DNA of 64,000 nt from the NCBI GenBank assembly GCA_050698355.1, contig JBOHBN010000006.1, positions 13,277 to 77,276 on the forward strand. The letters run 5' to 3'. This stretch comes from Streptosporangiales bacterium. GTDB lineage: Bacteria; Actinomycetota; Actinomycetes; Streptosporangiales; WHST01. Both the position numbers and the translations under genes were made by a program. Below the pieces are notes generated by a model. That model worked only from the letters and a program-made list of their open reading frames with translations, made no database searches and was not told the origin of the DNA. Below are positions 847 through 48,473 of the stretch, one piece after another (the stretch's first letter is position 1; each line of letters begins with the position of its first letter).

Positions 847-2034
847 ATGACGACCGAGCAGCACCACCTACCCGACAGCGGTAGCGGCGCCGAGGCAATC
901 GTCGGCGCCGAGTCGGGTGTCGGTGACCGCTTGGTGACGGCGCTGGCCGGCGTGGCAAAAGAGCTGTGCCGACCCGGTAATCAGGACGAGACTCTCGCGG
1001 CGATCGTCGCCGCCGCGATCAACACCGTGCCGGGTGCGGAACAGGCCGGTGTGTCGCTGGTACACCGTGACGGCGCGATCACCTCCCACCACCCGTCCAG
1101 CGAGACCATCGCGACTGTCGACCAGCTGCAATCCACCTACGCCGAGGGCCCGTGCGTGACTGCACTGCGCGAGGAACACATGGTGGTCGTCGACGATCTG
1201 GCCGTCGAGGCCTCCCGGTGGCCACGGTTCGCTCCCGAAGCGGTCTCGCACGGGGTGGCGAGCATGCTGTCGTTCCAGCTGTTCGCCGCCGCGGATACCC
1301 GCGGCGCGCTGAACCTGTACTCGAGCCAGCCCAAGGCGTTCGCCGAGGAGTCGCATTTGGTCGGGGAGTTGTTCGCCTCGCACGCCGCGGTCGCGCTCGC
1401 CGGGGCGCGGCACGCCGGCCAGCTCGAACAGGCCCTGTCCAGCAGGGACGTGATCGGGCAGGCCAAGGGCATCTTGATGGAACGATTCGGTGTCGACGCC
1501 GACGGCGCGTTCACCATGCTGGTGTCGAGCTCCCAGAACACCGACATCAAGGTCGTCGACGTCGCGCGCTGGCTGGCCACCACTGTCGGGGAGAACAGGC
1601 CTGGTCAACACGGTCACGACCGCGATGCGGTCCCGACCAGGCGGGCAGGCGCGGAACAGGTCGAGGCGACGCAACGCACCCACGGCAGCAACGGCCTTGT
1701 CCGCATCGAGCCGCTGGCCGATGATCGTGCCGGACTGCGGCTAACCGGCGAGATCGACCTGTCCAACCGGGAGCAGCTCACCGCCGCGTTGGCGGGTCTG
1801 ACCGCAGCCACCAGCGGACATCAGCAGGTACACCTTGAACTCGCCGGCTTGGACTTCATCGACGTGGCTGGAACCCGAGTCCTGCTCGCCACCGCCGAGC
1901 AGCTGCACGAACACGGCGGACGGCTGATCCTGAATCACCCGTCCCCGGTACTGAGCCGGGTCCTCGCGCTGCTGGTGTCGGACGCCGGTCTCGCCGCCAG
2001 CGAAAACGGGTCCGTGACGCTGCCGTACCACTAA
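847..2034 (+). CDS. GAF + ANTAR + C-terminal STAS fusion regulator
   Basis: GAF core (TYAEGPCVTALRE). ANTAR motif (SRDVIGQAKGILMERFGVDADGAFTMLVSSSQNTDIKVVDVARWL). C-terminal STAS-like block (LRLTGEIDLSNREQL...VHLELAGLDFIDVAGTRVLL). Confidence 0.85.
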   Translation: MTTEQHHLPDSGSGAEAIVGAESGVGDRLVTALAGVAKELCRPGNQDETLAAIVAAAINTVPGAEQAGVSLVHRDGAITSHHPSSETIATVDQLQSTYAEGPCVTALREEHMVVVDDLAVEASRWPRFAPEAVSHGVASMLSFQLFAAADTRGALNLYSSQPKAFAEESHLVGELFASHAAVALAGARHAGQLEQALSSRDVIGQAKGILMERFGVDADGAFTMLVSSSQNTDIKVVDVARWLATTVGENRPGQHGHDRDAVPTRRAGAEQVEATQRTHGSNGLVRIEPLADDRAGLRLTGEIDLSNREQLTAALAGLTAATSGHQQVHLELAGLDFIDVAGTRVLLATAEQLHEHGGRLILNHPSPVLSRVLALLVSDAGLAASENGSVTLPYH

Positions 2035-2106
2035 GCCAGGGTCCTGTGGATCAACAATGCGCCGTCCGAGCCGCCGCTCCGCTCAGCGAACAACACGGTT
2101 GCCTGC

Positions 2107-2895
2107 TCAGCTCTTCCCCGCGACGAGCAGCGTGTAGCCGAGCGTGCCGTCGGCGACGGCGGTGCGAGCTGCGGCGATCACGGGTGCCGCTCGGTCGAGG
2201 TCGAGGCCGAGCTGCTCGGCGCGGCTCCTGGCGGTCATGGCGACGATGCCGAGCCGTGCCTCGATCTGGTCGATCATGCGGCTCAACGCCTGGTCGTGCG
2301 GCTCGGTGCGGCTGACCCGTAGCCCCGCATCACGCAGGATCTGCGCGTACCCCTCGACCGGCCGGGCGTCGGAGATGCAGGCGATCCAGGCGGCGAGGGT
2401 GGCCAGTTCGGGGGGCAGCCGATCCGGCTCGGCGGTGACATCGGTGATGCCGACCCGCCCGCCGGGCCGCAGTACGCGGGCCAGTTCGGCGGCCGCCGTG
2501 GCCTTGTCGGGGAAGGTGCAGAACGCGCACTCGCACAGGGCGGCATCGAAGGTGGCGTCGGGCGCGGGGAGGCGCTCGGCGTCGCCGGTACGGAACCGCA
2601 CGCGGTCGGCGACACCGGCGCTGTCTGCAGCCTCGCGGGCGAGCGCGACGTTGGCGTCGGAGAGGTCGACCCCCTCCACGCACGCGTCGTACTCGCGGGC
2701 GAGCAGCAGCGCGGTGGCGCCGCGGCCGGCGGCGACGTCCAGCACCCGCTCGCCCGCGGACAGGCCGAGCCGGTCGGCCAACCGGCGGGTGAGTGCCAGC
2801 CCGCCGGGGTGGTAGCAGTCGCCGAGCAGCAGCGCGACGGCGTCGGAGCCGTACGCGGCCGCGCAGCACGCCTTGACGTCGTCCGGCGTGCTCAT
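2107..2895 (-). CDS. SAM-dependent methyltransferase, ArsM-like (Cys-rich)
   Basis: Start MSTPDDVKACCAAAYG. SAM motif I VLDVAAGRGATA. RVLRPGGR motif. Cysteine pairs CC and CECAFC. Its ATG overlaps the upstream stop (ATGA at 2892-2895). Confidence 0.8.
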   Translation of the reverse strand: MSTPDDVKACCAAAYGSDAVALLLGDCYHPGGLALTRRLADRLGLSAGERVLDVAAGRGATALLLAREYDACVEGVDLSDANVALAREAADSAGVADRVRFRTGDAERLPAPDATFDAALCECAFCTFPDKATAAAELARVLRPGGRVGITDVTAEPDRLPPELATLAAWIACISDARPVEGYAQILRDAGLRVSRTEPHDQALSRMIDQIEARLGIVAMTARSRAEQLGLDLDRAAPVIAAARTAVADGTLGYTLLVAGKS

Positions 2896-4538
2896 GTCCT
2901 GGGCCCCCACGGAAACGCCGAGCTTGCGGAGCGTTTTCGTGGGGTGGGTCGCAGCGACCTGCCGACGTTGGTGGCGTCGCCGCGCGCACCGGTGCCGTCG
3001 CGGGCGATCTTCGACCCGTACGGCGAATCGGTGAGGGCTGGTCGCAGCGGTGTGGCGTTGGGGACCACGTCGGCGATGTGCACGCCCGACATCTGTTCGC
3101 GGACCTGCTCGCGGTAGCCGACCGAGTTGTAGGCGCAGAAGGGGATGATCCGCCCGTCCGGGGTGATCTCCTCCACACAGCACTTCATCAGCTGCTTGAC
3201 GTTGAGCGTGTACGGGTCCTGGAAGTCCTGCACCACGATCATGAACGCCTTGTCCGCCAGTTGTTGGACGGCTTCGGGCAGGTCGACCCCACAGGCTTCC
3301 GCGCAGTTGAACGCCGCCGCGGTCTCCGCCAGCTTCTCGTTCGTGGTGTCGGTGCCCATGAACGCCGACGCGCTCCACAGCTTCTCCAGCGCCTCGCGGA
3401 CGTCGACGTCGGGCATCACCCGGTTGGTGACGTAGTCCAGGTAGTCCTCCACGTTGACCAACCGCGGGATCGGGATCACCGTGGTACGCGGGCCGCTGTC
3501 GTCGACGAGCAGGTAGGTGATCGACCGGCAGGTGGGGAAGCAGCAAGGGACGGGAAAGAAGTCGTCGGCGCGGAACCACTCGGGCAGCTGCTGCGCCGCG
3601 AGCTCGATGACGTCGGAGTTGGTCAGCCGGGTCAGCGGGTCGAACTCGACGTGCCGTCCCGAATGCGTGACGACCTGGAACGACACCGCGCGTACGGCCG
3701 GGTGCTCGATGCCGTAGGCGATGATCGGTCCGATCTCGTGCTCGTTCACGCCGCGTTCCACGGCCGGAACCAGTGTCACCGCAAGGCCGGCCTCGGCGCA
3801 GTTGTCTAGCGCGCGCCGCTTGATCGCACGCAGGTCACGGCCACGGATCCGCTGGTGTGTGCGTTCGTCCAGGCCGTCGAACTGCAGGTAGATGTGCACC
3901 CGGTGGCCAGGCCGGTCGCGCCGCGCGAGCGCGGCGACAAACCGGTTGTCCGTAGCCAGCCTGATGCCGTTGGTGTTCAGCGTCACCGACTTGATCGGCC
4001 GGGCCTGCGCGAGATCGACGAAGTCCAGGATGTGCTTGTGGATCGTCGGCTCCCCGCCGGACAGCATCACCACCTCCGCCTCGCCCTCGCTGGCCACGAA
4101 CGTGTCCAGCATCCGCTCGCACTGCTCCACCGTGATCTGGTAGCCGTCCGGTTGGTGCCCGGAGTCGGCGAAGCAGACCGGGCAGTCCAGGTTGCAGCCG
4201 GTGTTCACCTCGATGATGCCCAGGCACGCGTGCTGCTTGTGCTCCGGACACAACCCGCAGTCATGTGGGCACCCGTCGCGCACCTCGGTCTGGAACTCCA
4301 GCGGGATCGTCCCCGGCTTGTTGAACCGCGCGGACTCCACGTACATCCGCGCGTCGCCGTACACCAGCGCCTCGAACTCGCCGTGCTCACTACAGCGCTT
4401 GCGCAGGTACACCCTGCCGTCGCGGATGTTCACCTGCGCGTCGACGACGACCTTGCACACCGGGCAGATCGACTTGGTGTACTCGTAGAAGACCTCATCG
4501 CGATCCCGCTTGGCTTGTACTGCCGTTGGTTCCAACAC
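2892..4538 (-). CDS. Radical SAM enzyme with N-terminal zinc-ribbon and extra Cys clusters (COG1964-like)
   Basis: GTG start at 4536-4538. CPVC...CSEHG ribbon. CPHDCGLCPEHKQHAC auxiliary-cluster motif. Canonical CNLDCPVC (CxxxCxxC). GGEPT SAM-binding motif. PVPCCFPTC. Confidence 0.85.
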   Translation of the reverse strand: MLEPTAVQAKRDRDEVFYEYTKSICPVCKVVVDAQVNIRDGRVYLRKRCSEHGEFEALVYGDARMYVESARFNKPGTIPLEFQTEVRDGCPHDCGLCPEHKQHACLGIIEVNTGCNLDCPVCFADSGHQPDGYQITVEQCERMLDTFVASEGEAEVVMLSGGEPTIHKHILDFVDLAQARPIKSVTLNTNGIRLATDNRFVAALARRDRPGHRVHIYLQFDGLDERTHQRIRGRDLRAIKRRALDNCAEAGLAVTLVPAVERGVNEHEIGPIIAYGIEHPAVRAVSFQVVTHSGRHVEFDPLTRLTNSDVIELAAQQLPEWFRADDFFPVPCCFPTCRSITYLLVDDSGPRTTVIPIPRLVNVEDYLDYVTNRVMPDVDVREALEKLWSASAFMGTDTTNEKLAETAAAFNCAEACGVDLPEAVQQLADKAFMIVVQDFQDPYTLNVKQLMKCCVEEITPDGRIIPFCAYNSVGYREQVREQMSGVHIADVVPNATPLRPALTDSPYGSKIARDGTGARGDATNVGRSLRPTPRKRSASSAFPWGPRT

Positions 4539-4622
4539 AGTCAGCCGACCTTCACTCGAGACACGCCAGCAAGCAGTCCACTCCTTCCCGGATGATCACG
4601 AGAAGTAACTACCGGCTAGCGT

Positions 4623-4658
4623 CGTGCACCAGAAGTTCGGGGTTGAACTTGGTGCACG
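4623..4658. promoter_or_regulatory. Imperfect palindrome in the divergent promoter between the radical SAM gene and a methyltransferase
   Basis: CGTGCACCAGAAGTTCGGGGTTGAACTTGGTGCACG: 8-bp perfect outer arms plus partially matching inner arms, in a visibly AT-richer intergenic stretch. Confidence 0.35.
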
Positions 4659-4744
4659 AGTACTTCTCACGACGAAATCGCGCTCACCTCAGCCAGGGCG
4701 GCTACGAGCTGACTTTCGGAGCCGGAACAGGGACACTCTGGAGT

Positions 4745-5374
4745 GTGATCGATCCTGAGGCAACGGAGCGGTCGCGGCGGCTGTACGACGCGTACGCGCC
4801 GCGCTACGACCGGGAGGTTGGTTTCTACGAGCGCGTCCTGCTCGGGGACGGCCGGACATGGGCATGCGCACAGGCGACCGGCGAGGTGCTCGAGGTCGCG
4901 GTCGGCACCGGCCGGAACCTGCCCTTCTACCCTCACGGCGTCCAACTCACCGGGGTCGACCTCAGCCCCGCCATGCTGGCGATCGCCCAGGCGAGGGCGC
5001 GGCATCGCGGCATCGTGGCACGTCTCCAGGCGGGCGACGCGCAGGCCCTATCCTTCGCAGACGGGTCGTTCGACACGGCCTTGTGCACGCTGGGGTTGAG
5101 CAGCATCCCCGACCCGGAGGCCGCCATCCGCGAGATGTCTCGGGTACTACGCCCGGGGGGCCGCATGGTCCTCGTCGGCCATGTCGCCAGCCACCACCGA
5201 GCCGCACGCGCCGGGCAGGCACTGCTCGAACGGCTCTCCGTGCCATTGACCGGCGACTACCAGACCCGCGAGCCGCTCCCGCTCGTCCTCGCCGCCGGCT
5301 TTCTGATCGACCATCGTGAGCGCCGCAGGGCCGGGATCATCGAGCGGCTCGTCGCGGTGAAGCCCGGCAGGTAG
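4745..5374 (+). CDS. Class I SAM-dependent methyltransferase
   Basis: RLYDAYAPRYD N-terminal signature. Motif I VLEVAVGTGRN. RVLRPGGR. Start uncertain: GTG at 4745 chosen, but the ORF is open from 4526. Confidence 0.75.
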   Translation: MIDPEATERSRRLYDAYAPRYDREVGFYERVLLGDGRTWACAQATGEVLEVAVGTGRNLPFYPHGVQLTGVDLSPAMLAIAQARARHRGIVARLQAGDAQALSFADGSFDTALCTLGLSSIPDPEAAIREMSRVLRPGGRMVLVGHVASHHRAARAGQALLERLSVPLTGDYQTREPLPLVLAAGFLIDHRERRRAGIIERLVAVKPGR

Positions 5375-5413
5375 TTCGCGCGGCGCGGACCTCCCTACCG
5401 GCGCGCTCTCGCG

Positions 5414-6011
5414 CTAGCCGCTGGTGACCGCGGCGAGCCCTTCCCGGGATCGTTGCGTGCCGTCGAGGTCGGTGAACCGACCGATGTCGTACACGATGAT
5501 GTGTGCGCAGCCCGCTTGCTCGTAACGCTCCAGCTGTTCGCGAACGTCGGCCGGAGAGCCTGCCATGTTCGCGCAGCGCCCACAGGTCGGCGAGCGCGGG
5601 ACGCATGTAATCGAGGCGGCCGGTGCGTTCCCGTCCGGAGTGCAGCCCGAACGGACGCAGCTGCCCGGGATCACCGACGCCCAGTCCGAGGACCATGCGT
5701 CGGTTGCCGAGCCAGCTTATCGTGCTGGCGGTGTGCGCCAACGCGACCGCGCTGCGGCGTACCGGGTCGGTCACGGCCACGCCGAGGGTGATGCGCTGCG
5801 TGGCGACTGCGCCGACTGAAAGCACCGATAGCGGATCGAGGACCCGATGCGGATCGGCGACGACCGGGGTATCGACGCCGCGCGGAAACCAGCCCTGTAA
5901 GTGATCGAGCATCCATGCGCCGGCGATGCCGGGTTGCGCCTCTGCCCACCGGATATCGTCAATCGGGTTGGCCTCGGGATACACCGAGACACCCATGCCA
6001 ACCTCTACCAC
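5414..6011 (-). pseudogene. LLM-class (luciferase-like) flavin/F420 oxidoreductase, frameshifted with a large internal deletion
   Basis: About 140 N-terminal aa (ITLGVAVTDPVRRSAVALAHTASTISWLGNRRMVLGLGVGDP...ADLWALRE) lie in one frame. The C-terminal tail (GSPADVREQLERYEQAGCAHIIVYD) lies in another frame. The central ~150 aa typical of the family are absent. Confidence 0.55.
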
Positions 6012-9496: not shown

Positions 9497-10021
9497 TCAG
9501 AAGAACCAGTCGATGCGGGCGTAATCGCCGGCGGCGAACTCGCCGAACTGGCCCGAGTAGAAGGTGAGCGGGTCGCCTTCGCGCTCGCAGCTGGCGACGA
9601 CGGCAGCGAGGAAGAGTACGTGGTCGCCCGCGGGGATCTCGCGTTCGGTCGCGCACTCCAAGTGGGCGAGGGCGTCCGGGACGACCGGCACCTTGTGCGT
9701 GCCGTACTCCAGCGGAAGGCCGTCGAAGTGGTCTTCGCCCTGCCGCGCGAACCGCCGGGCGATCTGTTCCTGGCGGGCAGCGACCACGGAGATGGCGAAG
9801 CGCCCGGCCTCCTGCACCGACTCGGTGGTCCGCGCATGTTCCGCGAGGCTGACGAGCAGCAGCGGAGGGGTCAGGGACACCGACGTCAGCGAGTTCACGG
9901 TCATCCCGAACGCGACACCGTCGACCATGGTGGTCACCACCGCCACCCCGGTGGCGAACCGGCCCATGGTGCGGCGGAGCACTGCAGGGTCGATGCCGTC
10001 ACCGAAAGCAGTCATGCCCAC
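9497..10021 (-). CDS. Flavin reductase (HpaC-like NAD(P)H:flavin oxidoreductase)
   Basis: RFATGVAVVTT...GMTVNSLTSVSLTPPLLLVSL, the flavin_reduct family signature. Confidence 0.85.
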   Translation of the reverse strand: MGMTAFGDGIDPAVLRRTMGRFATGVAVVTTMVDGVAFGMTVNSLTSVSLTPPLLLVSLAEHARTTESVQEAGRFAISVVAARQEQIARRFARQGEDHFDGLPLEYGTHKVPVVPDALAHLECATEREIPAGDHVLFLAAVVASCEREGDPLTFYSGQFGEFAAGDYARIDWFF

Positions 10022-10032
10022 TGGTCGCGTCC

Positions 10033-10386
10033 TCAGCTGGGCGACCGGTACCGCACCTCGAAGGTGAGGCAGCCGTCGTCACTGCGCCAGGGACCGTGCT
10101 CCATTCCCGGCCGACGGCACGCGTACATTCCGGCGGTGAACGTCTCGTCGAGCCGCAGGTCGGTGAGCGATCCGGCGATGATGTAGACCTCTTCCCAGAA
10201 GTCATGGGCCTGGACGCCGTTCGGCGTGGTGTCGGTTCCCGGGGTGAACTTCAGCATCCGGCTAGCGACCTTGCCGTCGTCGTCGGTCGCCAGCACGCGT
10301 TCTGTAAGGGTGTCGACGTCGCCGTCGCAGCGGGTGAACCCGATCCCGCTCGTGTCGAAGAACTCGTACTCGGGCTTGGCCATCAA
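10033..10386 (-). CDS. Cupin-domain protein
   Basis: 117 aa with HDFWEEVYIIAGSL...GMYACRRPGMEHGP cupin motifs, between the HpaB-like and reductase genes. Confidence 0.65.
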   Translation of the reverse strand: MMAKPEYEFFDTSGIGFTRCDGDVDTLTERVLATDDDGKVASRMLKFTPGTDTTPNGVQAHDFWEEVYIIAGSLTDLRLDETFTAGMYACRRPGMEHGPWRSDDGCLTFEVRYRSPS

Positions 10387-10394
10387 TCGCGCTC

Positions 10395-11843
10395 CTAGTC
10401 GTTGACGTCGTACGAGTCGAGGAAGGCATCGACGGCCGCGACGGGCTCCTCGAAGCCATAGTTACGGTACGCGTATCCCTTGGCGACGAAGGGCGCTCCC
10501 GCGTAGAACATCTCGTACTGGTGGTGGCGGCCACCGAACTCGCTGCTCACCGCATCCCACACCAGCTTGAACAGCTTCACACGCTCCTCCGCCGGCACTC
10601 CCGGCGACTGGATGTACCGGTCGATGTCGCTGCGAAGCGCCGGGTTGCGCATGTCCTCAACACTAGACGGCACCTGGAGTACGCCGCCACCCACGAGGTC
10701 ACGGACGGTCGCCAGCACTCGCGGGTAGAGCTCCGCCTGCAGGCCCATAGCGCCGTACAGCGATCGTGGTCGTGGTAGCCACAGTCCCGCGTCGTCCGGC
10801 TCCGCCGCGTACTCGGCGGCGAGCACGGCCGACTCGACGAGCGAGGCGATGCTGGCAAGCTCGCCGAGCTTCTCCTGTACGCCGGGAATGCGGTCGGCAC
10901 CGTTGGTCCGCGCCACCTTCATGGCCAGGCCGGCGAGAAACTGCAGCTTGACGGCGAAGCGGATCTGCGCCTGCCAGTTGCCGAGGATGTGCGCGCCTGT
11001 ACCGAAAAACTGCCGGCGTACGCCGTCGACGTCACGGCACACGAAGACGCGCTCCCACGGCACGAACACGTCGTCGAAGACGAGCAGGGCGTCGGTCTCG
11101 TCGTAACGGGTGCTGAGCGGGTAGTCGTAGCGGCTGGTGGCGGCGGTCGCGTACGGACGGCGGCAGTACAGCTTCAACCCCGGCGCCTGTACGGGAACCA
11201 CGAAGCCGAGCGCGAAGTCGCGGTCCTCCGGTGTGAGCGGCTTGATGCACGACACGAAGATCTCGTCGGCAACGGCACCTCCGGTAGCCAGCATCTGCGC
11301 CCCGCGGACGACGATGCCGTCGTCGCGTTCATCGACCACGCCGACCTGGATGAAGTCGCCTTCCCAGGCGTGCGCCGTGGTCGCGCGCGACACCTGCGGC
11401 GGGATGATCGCGTACGACAGGAACAGGCTCTCCCGCGCCGCGCGCTTGTGGTACGCGGTGACGTTGGCGCCGAGGTCTCGCTCGTCGCTACGGAACGCCT
11501 CCGGATGCGCGGCGAAGCCGGCAAGGAAGGACGCCACGTGGTCGAGGCTACGGCCGACCCATCCGTTGGTCCGCCGGGACCAGGTCTCGATCGCGTGGCG
11601 GCGGGCCGTGAGCTGTTCCCTGCTGCGTGGGATGGAGTAGACGAGGTTCGCGCGCTCGCCCGTCTCCGGCGAGTCGTAGACCATGCCGTTCGCCGGATCC
11701 GCGGCGAGGTCGTACAGGTCGGCCACCGTGGCGGTTATCGGTGCAAACGCGGGATGCTTCACTACGTCCTCGACGCGTTCGCCGTCGACGTAGATCTCCC
11801 GGTCGTCCGACAGAGCCGCGAGGTAGTCCCCTCCTGTGCGCAT
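10395..11843 (-). CDS. 4-hydroxyphenylacetate 3-monooxygenase family oxygenase component (HpaB-type, two-component flavin monooxygenase)
   Basis: 482 aa. N-terminal GGDYLAALSDDREIYVDGERVEDVVKHPAF and full-length family-like layout. Substrate unknown. Confidence 0.88.
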   Translation of the reverse strand: MRTGGDYLAALSDDREIYVDGERVEDVVKHPAFAPITATVADLYDLAADPANGMVYDSPETGERANLVYSIPRSREQLTARRHAIETWSRRTNGWVGRSLDHVASFLAGFAAHPEAFRSDERDLGANVTAYHKRAARESLFLSYAIIPPQVSRATTAHAWEGDFIQVGVVDERDDGIVVRGAQMLATGGAVADEIFVSCIKPLTPEDRDFALGFVVPVQAPGLKLYCRRPYATAATSRYDYPLSTRYDETDALLVFDDVFVPWERVFVCRDVDGVRRQFFGTGAHILGNWQAQIRFAVKLQFLAGLAMKVARTNGADRIPGVQEKLGELASIASLVESAVLAAEYAAEPDDAGLWLPRPRSLYGAMGLQAELYPRVLATVRDLVGGGVLQVPSSVEDMRNPALRSDIDRYIQSPGVPAEERVKLFKLVWDAVSSEFGGRHHQYEMFYAGAPFVAKGYAYRNYGFEEPVAAVDAFLDSYDVND

Positions 11844-11957
11844 CAGCTGCTCCCCAGGTCGACGTCATGGATCCGTGTCTACACTTGTCAGGCTCTCACG
11901 GGGCTATAGTGCTGCGAGGGCCCGACGACTCAGCTGATCCGGCGAAATAACGACCAG

Positions 11958-12428
11958 GTGGCACGCGTTGACCACGGCATGCCACTTCAGGGAGAGTACG
12001 CACCCAGCCCGTCGGCGTGGGCTCGCGAGCACGCCGAACAGTTCGAGAACTCAGGTGGGACCGAAGCAACGACCCTGCGCGGCATGGCGATCGTGCTGCT
12101 GACTTCGGTCGGGGTCAAGACCGGCAAGCTGCGCAAGACGCCGCTGATGCGGGTCGAGCACGAGGGCCGGTACGCGATCGTCGCCTCGCTCGGCGGTGCG
12201 CCGAAGAACCCGGTGTGGTACCACAATGTGAAGGCCAATCCGCGCGTGGAACTCCAGGACGGGACGACAAAGCGGGACATGCTTGCCCGCGAGGTCACCG
12301 GCGAGGAGAAGGCGGTCTGGTGGGCCCGTGCCGTCGAGGCGTATCCCGACTATGCGGATTACCAGGAGAGGACGAGCCGGGAGATCCCGGTGTTCGTGCT
12401 CGAGCCGAAGGACGGGCGGGCGGTTTGA
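11958..12428 (+). CDS. Deazaflavin (F420H2)-dependent nitroreductase family protein (Ddn-like)
   Basis: [56 protein letters not shown] is the family signature. An alternative ATG start is at 11979. Confidence 0.85.
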
Positions 12429-38273: not shown

Positions 38274-38335
38274 GACTCAGCTCCTGCTTCCCATGGCCTG
38301 CAGGTCGTGGGAAGCAGGAACTCATCAAGGAAAGT
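38274..38335 (-). repeat. Family B hairpin repeat, copy 1 (inverted relative to copy 2)
   Basis: Reverse complement reads ACTTTCCTTGATGAGTTCCTGCTTCCCACGACCTGCAGGCCATGGGAAGCAGGAG. Stem TCCTGCTTCCCA/TGGGAAGCAGGA, apex CCTGCAGG. Confidence 0.8.
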
Positions 38336-48386: not shown

Positions 48387-48473
48387 ACTTCCCACGGTGA
48401 GTTCCTGCTTCCCACGGCCTGCAGGCCATGGGAAGCAGGAAATGAGTTACATACCGTGATCATTTCGGGCTGG
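48387..48473 (+). repeat. Family B hairpin repeat, copy 2, with both shared flanks
   Basis: ACTTCCCACGGTGAGTTCCTGCTTCCCACGGCCTGCAGGCCATGGGAAGCAGGAAATGAGTT...TGATCATTTCGGGCTG. Confidence 0.8.

Follow-up and report, generated by a model that had tools for sequence, protein, structure and literature searches.

What do bacteria do with their homologues of an archaeal enzyme of membrane lipid synthesis? Since 2022 hundreds of bacteria have been known to encode homologues of the archaeal tetraether synthase (Tes), the roles of which are unexplained, and the sole proposal made for them, the synthesis of brGDGTs (branched glycerol dialkyl glycerol tetraethers), is a poor fit for Streptomyces, Salinispora and Mycobacterium. 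One such homologue is encoded in a stretch of 64,000 nucleotides from a Streptosporangiales bacterium (GenBank assembly GCA_050698355.1, contig JBOHBN010000006.1, positions 13,277 to 77,276), which was analysed at its full length and is referred to here as the window. Its gene, which codes for an enzyme of the radical S-adenosylmethionine (SAM) type, overlaps the start of a gene for a SAM-dependent methyltransferase, MT1. The two genes are the core of a widespread, biochemically uncharacterised enzyme system, and the answer that we favour, tentatively and at somewhat less than an even chance, is that the pair would form a carbon-heteroatom bond on a hydrophobic substrate by radical chemistry and then methylate that heteroatom in the manner of ArsM.

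The features on which this argument is built (Table 1) had for the most part been described in an initial annotation of the same DNA, and on direct reading its descriptions held. The radical SAM open reading frame (ORF) of 548 residues carries the motifs CPVC...CSEHG, CPHDCGLCPEHKQHAC, CNLDCPVC and PVPCCFPTC; its stop codon does overlap the methyltransferase ATG, in the tetranucleotide ATGA, and both the CC and the CECAFC motif reported for the methyltransferase are there. A near-palindrome is likewise present in the divergent promoter region, although it extends beyond the limits of 4623-4658 first given for it, as is a second class I methyltransferase (MT2) that diverges from the radical SAM gene.

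That the first two genes belong together is seen most clearly from their relatives. One genome per species was scanned, more than 573 relatives were returned and 80 actinomycete loci were kept; the ORFs of at least 90 residues in these loci were clustered, and the clusters annotated with Pfam and NCBIfam. In 79 of the 80 loci the radical SAM gene is followed immediately by an MT1 homologue; in the remaining one the homologue lies past an insertion, 1.4 kb downstream. This brings the pairing to 80 out of 80, with the identical 4-nt overlap of the two genes in 42. Distant relatives of 36-45% identity also have the pair, namely L081, the Thermoleophilia locus L087, the Hodarchaeales (Asgard) locus L089, the TrsS-like locus L086, and L095, and natural radical SAM-methyltransferase fusion proteins occur: P0511 (724 residues; 31 blocks of the contig collection list it, of which 24 contigs were read), P0482 and P0429. 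The methyltransferase half of P0511 reaches 240.6 bits on the ArsM model, for which the cut-off is 263. Because the pairing recurs in this way, in adjacent genes and in distant clades, and because the two proteins are naturally fused, they are a conserved functional unit. The translationally coupled pair that had been described from the single locus is thus a conserved one, and the lack of pairing in other genomes that would have spoken against it is not what the co-occurrence check found. MT2 fared differently: it was considered as a conserved third component and rejected, since no more than 2 of the 80 other loci have a true homologue close to the pair; the divergent methyltransferase of the initial annotation is not a component of the system. 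It is about 29-30% identical to a different "second methyltransferase" that recurs in eight loci.

Some observations on more distant loci may be recorded alongside. In two outgroup clades, 42-49% identical (L083, 4293-5054; L084, 7440-9818), the radical SAM gene is paired with LGT-family diacylglyceryl-transferase-like genes, without a soluble methyltransferase; in the Thermincola outgroup there are, in addition, genes for an ArsP_1 permease and for a membrane methyltransferase of the ICMT/PEMT type nearby, a context that is lipid-flavoured. The methyltransferase partner of the TrsS-like enzyme in L086 (1487-2323) contains one in-frame stop, which may reflect an error of sequencing, a pseudogene or recoding of an unusual kind; selenocysteine was considered there and rejected, as the position aligns to Ala136 of MT1 and to no cysteine. 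A set of TrsS-like proteins of about 320 residues (P0430-P0436; L095, 3600-4000) that appear truncated have mis-called starts, the upstream frame being open through the zinc-ribbon and cluster domains, probably from a GTG start; truncation at UGA was thereby ruled out in favour of gene-calling artefacts.

The radical SAM enzyme contains the Pfam domains Zn_ribbon_HMPTM and Radical_SAM. Its best NCBIfam model is TrsS (NF045646; 336.4 bits, below the cut-off of 490) and its second Tes (NF045702; 328.2 bits, below the cut-off of 450). The sole strong match in a search of the PDB was the tetraether synthase of M. jannaschii, GDGT-MAS/Tes (7TOL, E=2.3e-80, residues 19-484), which was also the only close match (E about 1e-29) when the AlphaFold model was used in a fold search, the next match being at 2e-06. 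These results uphold the initial placement of the enzyme in the COG1964-type Tes/GDGT-MAS group, with two amendments: Tes and GDGT-MAS, which had been proposed as two comparators, are the same enzyme, and the radical SAM enzyme is unrelated to the other two proposed for comparison, ArsS (TIGR04167) and ArsL both being outside the best 25 of 46 matching NCBIfam families. It is TrsS and Tes that lead, by more than 250 bits, and no unrelated radical SAM family gave the best match.

Across Actinomycetota the enzyme is 70-82% identical. In 81 actinomycete sequences 51% of its positions are at least 95% conserved and all 20 of its cysteines are invariant, far above chance conservation. The metal sites and residue roles of GDGT-MAS have been defined (PMC9433317), and relative to that enzyme the window protein has the extra cysteines C105, C140, C247, C332, C333, C412 and C416. 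In a cross-clade alignment C105, C332 and C337 are common to every bacterial and Asgard homologue examined; C332 and C337 are kept together in all non-Tes homologues whereas GDGT-MAS has the equivalent of C337 only, and C416 is nearly invariant among non-Tes homologues and not found in GDGT-MAS. As these cysteines are shared across bacterial and Asgard homologues, and C105, C332 and C416 are not those of GDGT-MAS, the enzyme, by its motifs a multi-cluster radical SAM protein, belongs to a wide non-Tes branch in which the C-terminal metal site would be constructed in another way. The ORF has no in-frame UGA and is thus without selenocysteine.

Two alternative functions come with this family membership. 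The first is a Tes-like C-C coupling of two fatty-acyl or alkyl tail ends to give membrane-spanning or macrocyclic lipids, with MT1 methylating the chain or the head group, the coupling being the role proposed for bacterial homologues by Zeng et al. (brGDGTs). It draws on full-length homology to GDGT-MAS within the same four-domain architecture and on lipid-related neighbours in relatives: CDP-alcohol phosphatidyltransferase in 17 of the 80 loci, an SRPBCC protein in 33, a patatin, and the LGT genes beside the outgroup enzymes. In GDGT-MAS, Met439 is a labile ligand of [4Fe-4S]C, and both Met439 and Tyr459 are present without exception in 1,000 archaeal homologues, yet the M439A and Y459F/L variants stay active (PMC9433317), so that the loss of these residues does not exclude the chemistry. 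However, the window enzyme falls short of the Tes cut-off and has both residues replaced, its C-terminal site would be ligated differently, with extra invariant cysteines, and membrane-spanning lipids are not known from Streptomyces, Micromonospora or Salinispora. Coupling of this kind would also leave unexplained the invariant ArsM-type dithiol of the methyltransferase and the recurrent disulfide reductases described below, and we consider it unlikely. The second alternative is pterin methylation, by a 7,8-dihydro-6-hydroxymethylpterin dimethyltransferase (HMPTM). Several homologues are so named by the JGI, and the Pfam domain is called Zn_ribbon_HMPTM, but the founding member MJ0619 has been shown to be GDGT-MAS, with a long hydrophobic pocket, and the pterin activity was not corroborated (PMC9433317). 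Actinomycetes are not known to make methanopterin, and this function is hardly credible for the pair.

The best NCBIfam family for MT1 is DVU_1556, at 134.5 bits just below the cut-off of 155 (the partner in L081 scores 151.9 bits and true members 179-241), and the next is ArsM (PRK11873), on which it reaches 99.4 bits, below the cut-off of 263. In a Foldseek search its AlphaFold model, of high confidence (predicted local distance difference test, pLDDT, 90.8), was closest to AtmM, RebM, MitM, SpnF and TleD (template modelling scores 0.7-0.8), and ArsM was absent from the 50 best fold matches. Nevertheless, the part of MT1 around CECAFC aligns with residues 159-246 of CmArsM in equal lengths, and BLASTP of MT1 against CmArsM is ungapped here, with Cys123 on Cys174 and Cys173 on Cys224; in the CmArsM sequence used, the cysteines fall at 44, 72, 174 and 224 as published. 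Cys123 and Cys173 are, moreover, the only cysteines invariant across nine partner methyltransferases taken from actinomycetes, Thermoleophilia, Asgard archaea, L081, two bona fide TrsS cassettes and one fusion protein. In ArsM the pair Cys174-Cys224 binds As(III), MAs(III) and aromatic arsenicals, whilst Cys44 and Cys72 are the electron-donating pair, the disulfide of which is re-reduced by thioredoxin (PMC6138428). The N-terminal CC of MT1 is shared by the Thermoleophilia, Asgard, L081 and fusion forms and is not found in two DVU_1556 proteins proper; it does not align with Cys44/Cys72, the position of the ArsM motif YGCG reads YHPG, and Cys27 is only 4% conserved. The initial label of an ArsM-like methyltransferase is therefore right in one respect, in that the metalloid-binding pair is kept in register, and wrong in another, as by score and fold the protein is not a member of the ArsM family. 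By sequence and predicted fold, MT1 is a small-molecule SAM methyltransferase that retains the two As(III)-holding cysteines of ArsM.

An obligate methyltransferase partner and natural fusions would also fit a methyl relay, in which MT1 loads a methyl group from SAM on one of its own conserved cysteines or on the auxiliary cluster of the radical SAM enzyme, and the radical enzyme transfers it to an unactivated carbon. Such a split radical methylase would correspond to the methyl handling of RlmN/Cfr or of the MiaB type, divided between two proteins; it agrees with the old name "class D radical SAM methyltransferase" and with the InterPro family listing Methyltransferase_Class_D, and two conserved cysteines are a hallmark of RlmN/Cfr. 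However, the work on GDGT-MAS (PMC9433317) has overturned the placing of MJ0619 in class D, the MT1 cysteines align with the substrate-binding pair of ArsM and with no known methyl-carrier motif, and there is no precedent for a class I methyltransferase as methyl-cysteine donor to a radical SAM enzyme. We regard a methyl relay as improbable.

Genes for the handling of thiols recur in the neighbourhoods of the relatives. Class I pyridine-nucleotide disulfide oxidoreductases (Pyr_redox_2; 366 bits on the MerA model, below its cut-off of 454) occur in 28 of the 80 loci. In the closest relative, a metagenome-assembled genome (MAG) of another Streptosporangiales bacterium whose enzyme is 82% identical, the operon runs radical SAM - methyltransferase - Pyr_redox_2 - membrane protein - Crp/Fnr. 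Pyr_redox_2 is encoded within the operon in L090. In the Thermoleophilia locus L087 there are three Pyr_redox_2 genes, of which one is a fusion with glutaredoxin; a TrxR-like gene stands with a thioredoxin in L095; the Clostridium TrsS cassette has a pyridine nucleotide-disulfide oxidoreductase (PNDO)/dicluster protein (1034 bits, cut-off 530); and L092 and the fusion locus L093 have Fer4/CCG proteins that are heterodisulfide-reductase-like. That lineages have recruited non-orthologous reductases argues that disulfide reduction is part of the chemistry of the system. Genes also met repeatedly near the pair are those for a Crp/Fnr regulator (35 loci), for a MauE-family membrane protein immediately upstream on the same strand (28), for DUF427 (26) and for a four-helix membrane protein without a Pfam family (24), as well as for DUF3179, CcdA and a TlpA-like redoxin.

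Thiol-redox proteins such as these could be targets rather than helpers, and the pair might then be a maturase that modifies a protein, a peptide or a cofactor, for example a metallocofactor or a ribosomally synthesised and post-translationally modified peptide. Many multi-cluster radical SAM enzymes are maturases, and there are weak profile matches to MoaA, PqqE, mycofactocin and SPASM. These matches, however, span the generic radical SAM core only, at 30-63 bits; no conserved small ORF or precursor-like gene was found in the 80 neighbourhoods among ORFs of at least 90 residues, no conserved target protein stands beside the minimal two-gene form in the window, and the capped, RebM/MitM-like fold predicted for MT1 is typical of small-molecule methyltransferases. 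A maturase is distinctly improbable.

The regulatory sites of the relatives may point to redox control. In about 35 loci the [MauE-]radical SAM-methyltransferase operon has the motif GTGAGCGCGCTTAC, or close variants of it, upstream, and the motif recurs before the membrane protein-Crp/Fnr genes, which makes it a strong candidate for the operator of the type-A Crp/Fnr regulator, as predicted from the recurring sites. In the Streptomyces loci its distance from the radical SAM start is about 466-830 nt on the upstream side and about 2.0-2.5 kb on the downstream side. A palindrome TGTC-N8-GACA precedes the radical SAM start by 57-138 nt in about 19 loci, and further copies stand ahead of the regulator gene, disulfide reductases, redoxins and a GCS2 ligase. 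These sites fit TGTCAGCGTGCTGACA, the published consensus of the redox/NO (nitric oxide) sensor Cmr (PMC5499769, PMC5758884), the 4C/13G discriminator bases included, and the regulon includes AhpC, AhpD-like, TlpA/CcdA and GCS2 genes. The likeness to Cmr (Rv1675c, Mycobacterium tuberculosis) lies in the DNA motif of the type-B loci only, the regulator comparison having covered type A; the common type-A Crp/Fnr neighbour was considered as the orthologue of Cmr and rejected as a distant relative (46 bits).

Individual loci show these sites in more concentrated form. The exact 14-mer GTGAGCGCGCTTAC is present in L012, L018, L021, L023-L025, L035-L037 and other Streptomyces loci. Palindromes of the Cmr consensus, TGTCAGCnnGCTGACA, are clustered in L019, L047, L065, L072, L073 and L076, where they precede the radical SAM operon, a Crp/Fnr-methyltransferase operon, disulfide reductases, a GCS2 glutamate-cysteine ligase and a patatin-like gene, which suggests a local thiol or redox regulon.

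The window itself has none of this. Over its 64 kb no Crp/Fnr gene, disulfide reductase homologue or small membrane protein was found, and neither TGTC-N8-GACA nor GTGAGCGCGCTTAC occurs near the pair. Because regulator, reductase, membrane protein and Crp/Fnr motif are all absent, the window holds the bare two-gene core, with a palindrome of its own where relatives have the Crp/Fnr operator.

Taken together, the MT1 dithiol and the varied disulfide reductases point to carbon-heteroatom chemistry on unactivated carbons, and the favoured mechanism may be set out as follows. The radical SAM enzyme would make a 5'-deoxyadenosyl radical and take a hydrogen atom from an unactivated carbon of a hydrophobic substrate, which by analogy with GDGT-MAS would probably be lipid-like. 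At the cysteine-rich C-terminal metal site a thiophilic heteroatom would then trap the carbon radical, where in Tes a second carbon does so; this heteroatom might be a metalloid of the As(III) type, or else sulfur or selenium that the metal site itself provides. MT1 would clamp this heteroatom between Cys123 and Cys173 and methylate it with SAM. SAM-dependent methylation of an atom that is bound between a pair of thiolates is typical of As(III)/Sb(III) chemistry. Cys10-Cys11 would donate electrons, and the resulting disulfide would be re-reduced by a dedicated reductase, much as thioredoxin serves ArsM; in relatives such a reductase may be the one encoded beside the pair, which the window lacks. 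In those relatives the operon would be controlled by Crp/Fnr-type regulators, one subtype of which is predicted to use the Cmr-matching sites. GDGT-MAS forms an intermediate in which the substrate carbon is bonded to a cluster sulfur, C-S(cluster), in an active site that is a long hydrophobic channel (PMC9433317), and this provides a precedent for carbon-heteroatom capture in the same fold.

Several points weigh against this mechanism and should be considered with it. In the literature searched there is no measured activity, substrate or product for the non-Tes branch. The AlphaFold model of the radical SAM enzyme is weak in the very regions of the clusters (pLDDT 62), and the extra cysteines are also seen in the relatives paired with LGT-family genes, so that they would not be specific to methyltransferase-linked chemistry. 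As judged from its model, the fold of MT1 is closest to natural-product O-, N- and C-methyltransferases and not to ArsM, and its scores lie below the cut-offs of both ArsM and DVU_1556; its Cys123 and Cys173 could have another role, for example in metal or cluster binding or in docking of the radical SAM enzyme. The window lacks the reductase and the regulator of its relatives. Finally, the regulon looks like a general thiol/redox stress response, which counts against arsenic as the heteroatom, and ArsR, ArsC and Acr3 motifs were found neither within 6 kb of the 80 loci nor in the window.

A bolder version of carbon-heteroatom bond formation would make the pair the missing system for lipophilic organoarsenicals. 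The Tes-like enzyme would here take a hydrogen atom from the terminal carbon of an alkyl or acyl chain and join that carbon to cysteine-bound As(III), and the ArsM-type partner would methylate the alkyl-arsenic to give terminal dimethylarsinoyl lipids, that is, arsenic-containing hydrocarbons and fatty acids; with antimony, selenium or sulfur in place of arsenic, the products might include omega-methylthio or methylseleno lipids. Arsenic-containing hydrocarbons and fatty acids are not known to have assigned biosynthesis genes. This version is rather unlikely.

Table 1. Positions in the window of the two-gene core, its predicted metal-binding motifs and the adjoining features
Feature	Position	Strand	Remarks
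MT1 gene	2107-2895	minus	262 residues; class I SAM methyltransferase, DVU_1556-like, with ArsM-type dithiol
MT1 Cys173	2377-2379	minus	aligns with ArsM Cys224; 50 residues past Cys123, as in ArsM
MT1 C121-E-C123-A-F-C126	2518-2535	minus	CECAFC motif (121-126); Cys123 aligns with ArsM Cys174
MT1 Cys10-Cys11, N-terminal pair	2863-2868	minus	CC motif; invariant in actinomycetes
ATGA, overlap of radical SAM stop and MT1 start	2892-2895	minus	MT1 ATG 2895-2893, stop TGA 2894-2892
Radical SAM gene	2892-4538	minus	548 residues; Tes/TrsS family, non-Tes branch
C-terminal cluster region C453, C454 ... C468	3135-3182	minus	Glu457 at the position of Tes Tyr459
Val436-Gln437	3226-3231	minus	replace Tes Cys438-Met439
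Extra cysteine pair C412-x3-C416	3291-3305	minus	invariant in actinomycetes
PCCFPTC: C332, C333, C337	3528-3545	minus	invariant in actinomycetes
Radical SAM cluster motif C115-x3-C119-x2-C122	4173-4196	minus	direct reading; invariant
Extra invariant C105	4224-4226	minus	in all non-Tes homologues; not in GDGT-MAS
N-terminal auxiliary cluster motif C90-x3-C94-x2-C97 with H100/H103	4230-4271	minus	aligns with GDGT-MAS C73/C77/C80 and His
Rubredoxin-like metal site C25-x2-C28-x20-C49-x2-H52	4383-4466	minus	spacing equals GDGT-MAS C9X2C12X20C33X2H36; invariant in 81 sequences
Compound palindrome	4600-4668	none	middle of the 206-bp divergent intergenic region between the radical SAM gene and MT2; candidate operator or 5'-untranslated-region hairpin
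MT2, divergent class I methyltransferase	maximal ORF 4526-5374		probable start GTG 4745, where methyltransferase profiles begin aligning

The palindrome upstream of the radical SAM gene is a compound one that lies 62-130 nt from the start codon. It has perfect 10-nt arms (4622-4631/4650-4659), inner AAGTTC/GAACTT pairs and outer arms (4600-4607/4661-4668). Perfect 10-nt inverted repeats are not rare on their own, the window having 11 against 6.4 +/- 2.6 in Markov simulations; folding of the minus strand, however, gave -34.1 kcal/mol (z=-5.7, with none of 200 shuffles equally good) and of the plus strand z=-3.5, and the structure exceeds chance. No known RNA family came up in an Rfam scan that covered the window from end to end, and the palindrome is therefore none of the known riboswitches or leaders; scans for consensus promoters and terminators over 1950-5450 found nothing. 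As a conserved operator, which the initial annotation might lead one to expect, it was rejected: its GTGCAC arms are not kept upstream of the gene in the 80 related loci, the element is lineage-specific, and relatives carry Crp/Fnr-type operators at the same relative position. The GTGCAC half-site is in mild excess in the window (15 against 7.7 +/- 2.7), with no second inverted pair. An ANTAR target, suggested by a neighbouring GAF-ANTAR-STAS gene, was also rejected, the hairpin being without the dual hexaloop pattern.

That GAF-ANTAR-STAS gene (847-2034, plus strand) is convergent with MT1. A GAF-ANTAR gene is also found two genes downstream of the pair in L081 (9637-10383), of which the radical SAM enzyme is 45% identical, whilst none of the 80 actinomycete loci has an ANTAR gene near the pair, and its presence in both places is probably a coincidence. 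The last 38 or so residues of the radical SAM enzyme (511-548; window 2892-3008) are unconserved, modelled with very low confidence and of varying length among relatives; the main purpose of this tail may be to provide the overlap with the start codon of MT1. The other neighbours of the pair in the window are unrelated catabolic genes. A luciferase-like (F420-type) oxidoreductase gene at 5337-6011 (minus strand) covers only positions 36-123 of a 314-position profile, and the remainder appears to be held by an ORF in another frame (5414-5674, minus strand), so that the split gene is probably a frameshifted pseudogene or an error of MAG assembly; this luciferase-like neighbour is not conserved in any of the 80 loci. 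Further away, 5-8 kb from the pair, the genes at 9497-12428 (an HpaB-type two-component hydroxylase with flavin reductase, a ChrR-cupin and an F420H2-dependent quinone reductase) look like ordinary aromatic catabolism, unrelated to the pair. A near-perfect palindrome of about 40 nt, TTCCTGCTTCCCAyGGCCTGCAGGyCrTGGGAAGCAGGAA, occurs twice in the window (38279-38322 and 48400-48441), 10 kb apart and with 94% identity between the copies over 50 nt; it is perhaps a shared operator, perhaps a hairpin of the terminator type, or else a small repeat element.

With these results the question of what bacterial Tes homologues do gains a specific and testable form in cultivable actinomycetes. A large non-Tes branch travels with a methyltransferase, sometimes fused to it, the only universal cysteines of which are the metalloid-binding pair of ArsM. 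Carbon-heteroatom chemistry at unactivated carbons is a reaction type of interest to radical SAM enzymologists, and the system may bear on the origin of arsenolipids or of related sulfur and selenium lipids. The actinomycete version is a handy entry point, being a minimal two-gene unit found in cultivable and genetically tractable genera, for which the Crp/Fnr regulators of the relatives, including those with redox/NO-type sites of the Cmr kind, allow inducing conditions to be predicted. In the literature searched neither the actinomycete clade nor its methyltransferase partner is discussed, the bacterial Tes homologues there being the subject of bioinformatic brGDGT proposals.

How, then, does the pair compare with systems that are already known? 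With Tes/GDGT-MAS (MJ0619; 7TOL, 7TOM) the radical SAM enzyme shares its overall length and four-domain layout, and, judged from sequence motifs, the rubredoxin iron site, [4Fe-4S]N, [4Fe-4S]RS and the C-terminal CC...C motifs align. It differs in being about 30-36% identical and below the Tes cut-off (328 against 450), and in the replacement of Cys438, Met439 and Tyr459 by Val436, Gln437 and Glu457, which bears on membership of the family and not on chemical capability. Its host is an aerobic actinomycete without archaeol, and it has an obligate methyltransferase partner whereas Tes is without one. Since it falls below the curated cut-off and lacks the two hallmark residues, the enzyme is not classed as Tes, although it may work like Tes up to the carbon-radical step.

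A second known system is the TrsS/DVU_1553-DVU_1557 cassette (NF045646, NF045667). The cassette was reportedly named by Haft and Tolstoy in 2025; for the comparison it was rebuilt from the genomic context of a bona fide member in C. tyrobutyricum, where the order is PNDO/dicluster - DVU_1557 - DVU_1556 methyltransferase - DVU_1555 - TrsS - DVU_1553 CoA ligase and all components pass their cut-offs; the bona fide TrsS P0489 scores 689 bits on the TrsS model. Both window proteins have their best NCBIfam match here, a radical SAM gene adjoins a dithiol methyltransferase with a disulfide oxidoreductase in the neighbourhood, and the non-Tes cysteines C105, C332, C337 and C416 as well as methyltransferase cysteines 123 and 173 are common to both. 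However, both window proteins are below the cut-offs (336 against 490; 134.5 against 155), and in the window and the 80 loci tblastn found none of the DVU_1553 CoA ligase, DVU_1555 (C-GCAxxG-C-C), the DVU_1557 redox protein and PNDO/dicluster, nor are the CCG proteins of TrsS-type loci present there; the single DVU_1553-like match belongs to an additional locus, L090, where it is some 6 kb upstream of the pair. The gene order is reversed, with the radical SAM gene first here and the methyltransferase first in TrsS loci; the window methyltransferase has an N-terminal CC that DVU_1556 proteins are without; some TrsS members have selenocysteine and the window enzyme none; actinomycete hosts are aerobic whilst TrsS hosts are strict anaerobes; and the actinomycete relatives have a class I flavoprotein as reductase and regulators of the Crp/Fnr type. 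As only the radical SAM and methyltransferase parts are shared, both below cut-off, the pair is best classed as a variant of this bioinformatically defined TrsS/DVU_1556 cassette.

ArsM/AS3MT (CmArsM, 4FR0) is likewise a class I SAM methyltransferase, with an RVLRxGG motif between the paired cysteines and the same 50-residue spacing; MT1 has an N-terminal cysteine pair as well, out of register with Cys44/Cys72, and the thiol reductase partner in relatives fits the disulfide cascade of ArsM. The differences are a fold nearer to RebM, AtmM and MitM, a position of Cys72 (YGCG) that has no cysteine, and no ars context. The ArsS-ArsM and ArsL-ArsM systems, which make arsenosugars and arsinothricin, are described as forming a C-As bond by radical chemistry, with methylation of the arsenic before or after. 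There, as here, a radical SAM gene adjoins one for an ArsM-type methyltransferase, and the analogy is one of logic only: ArsS and ArsL come from different families of radical SAM enzymes and pass a piece of SAM itself to arsenic, whereas the Tes-like enzyme of the window would be expected to activate a C-H bond of a separate substrate.

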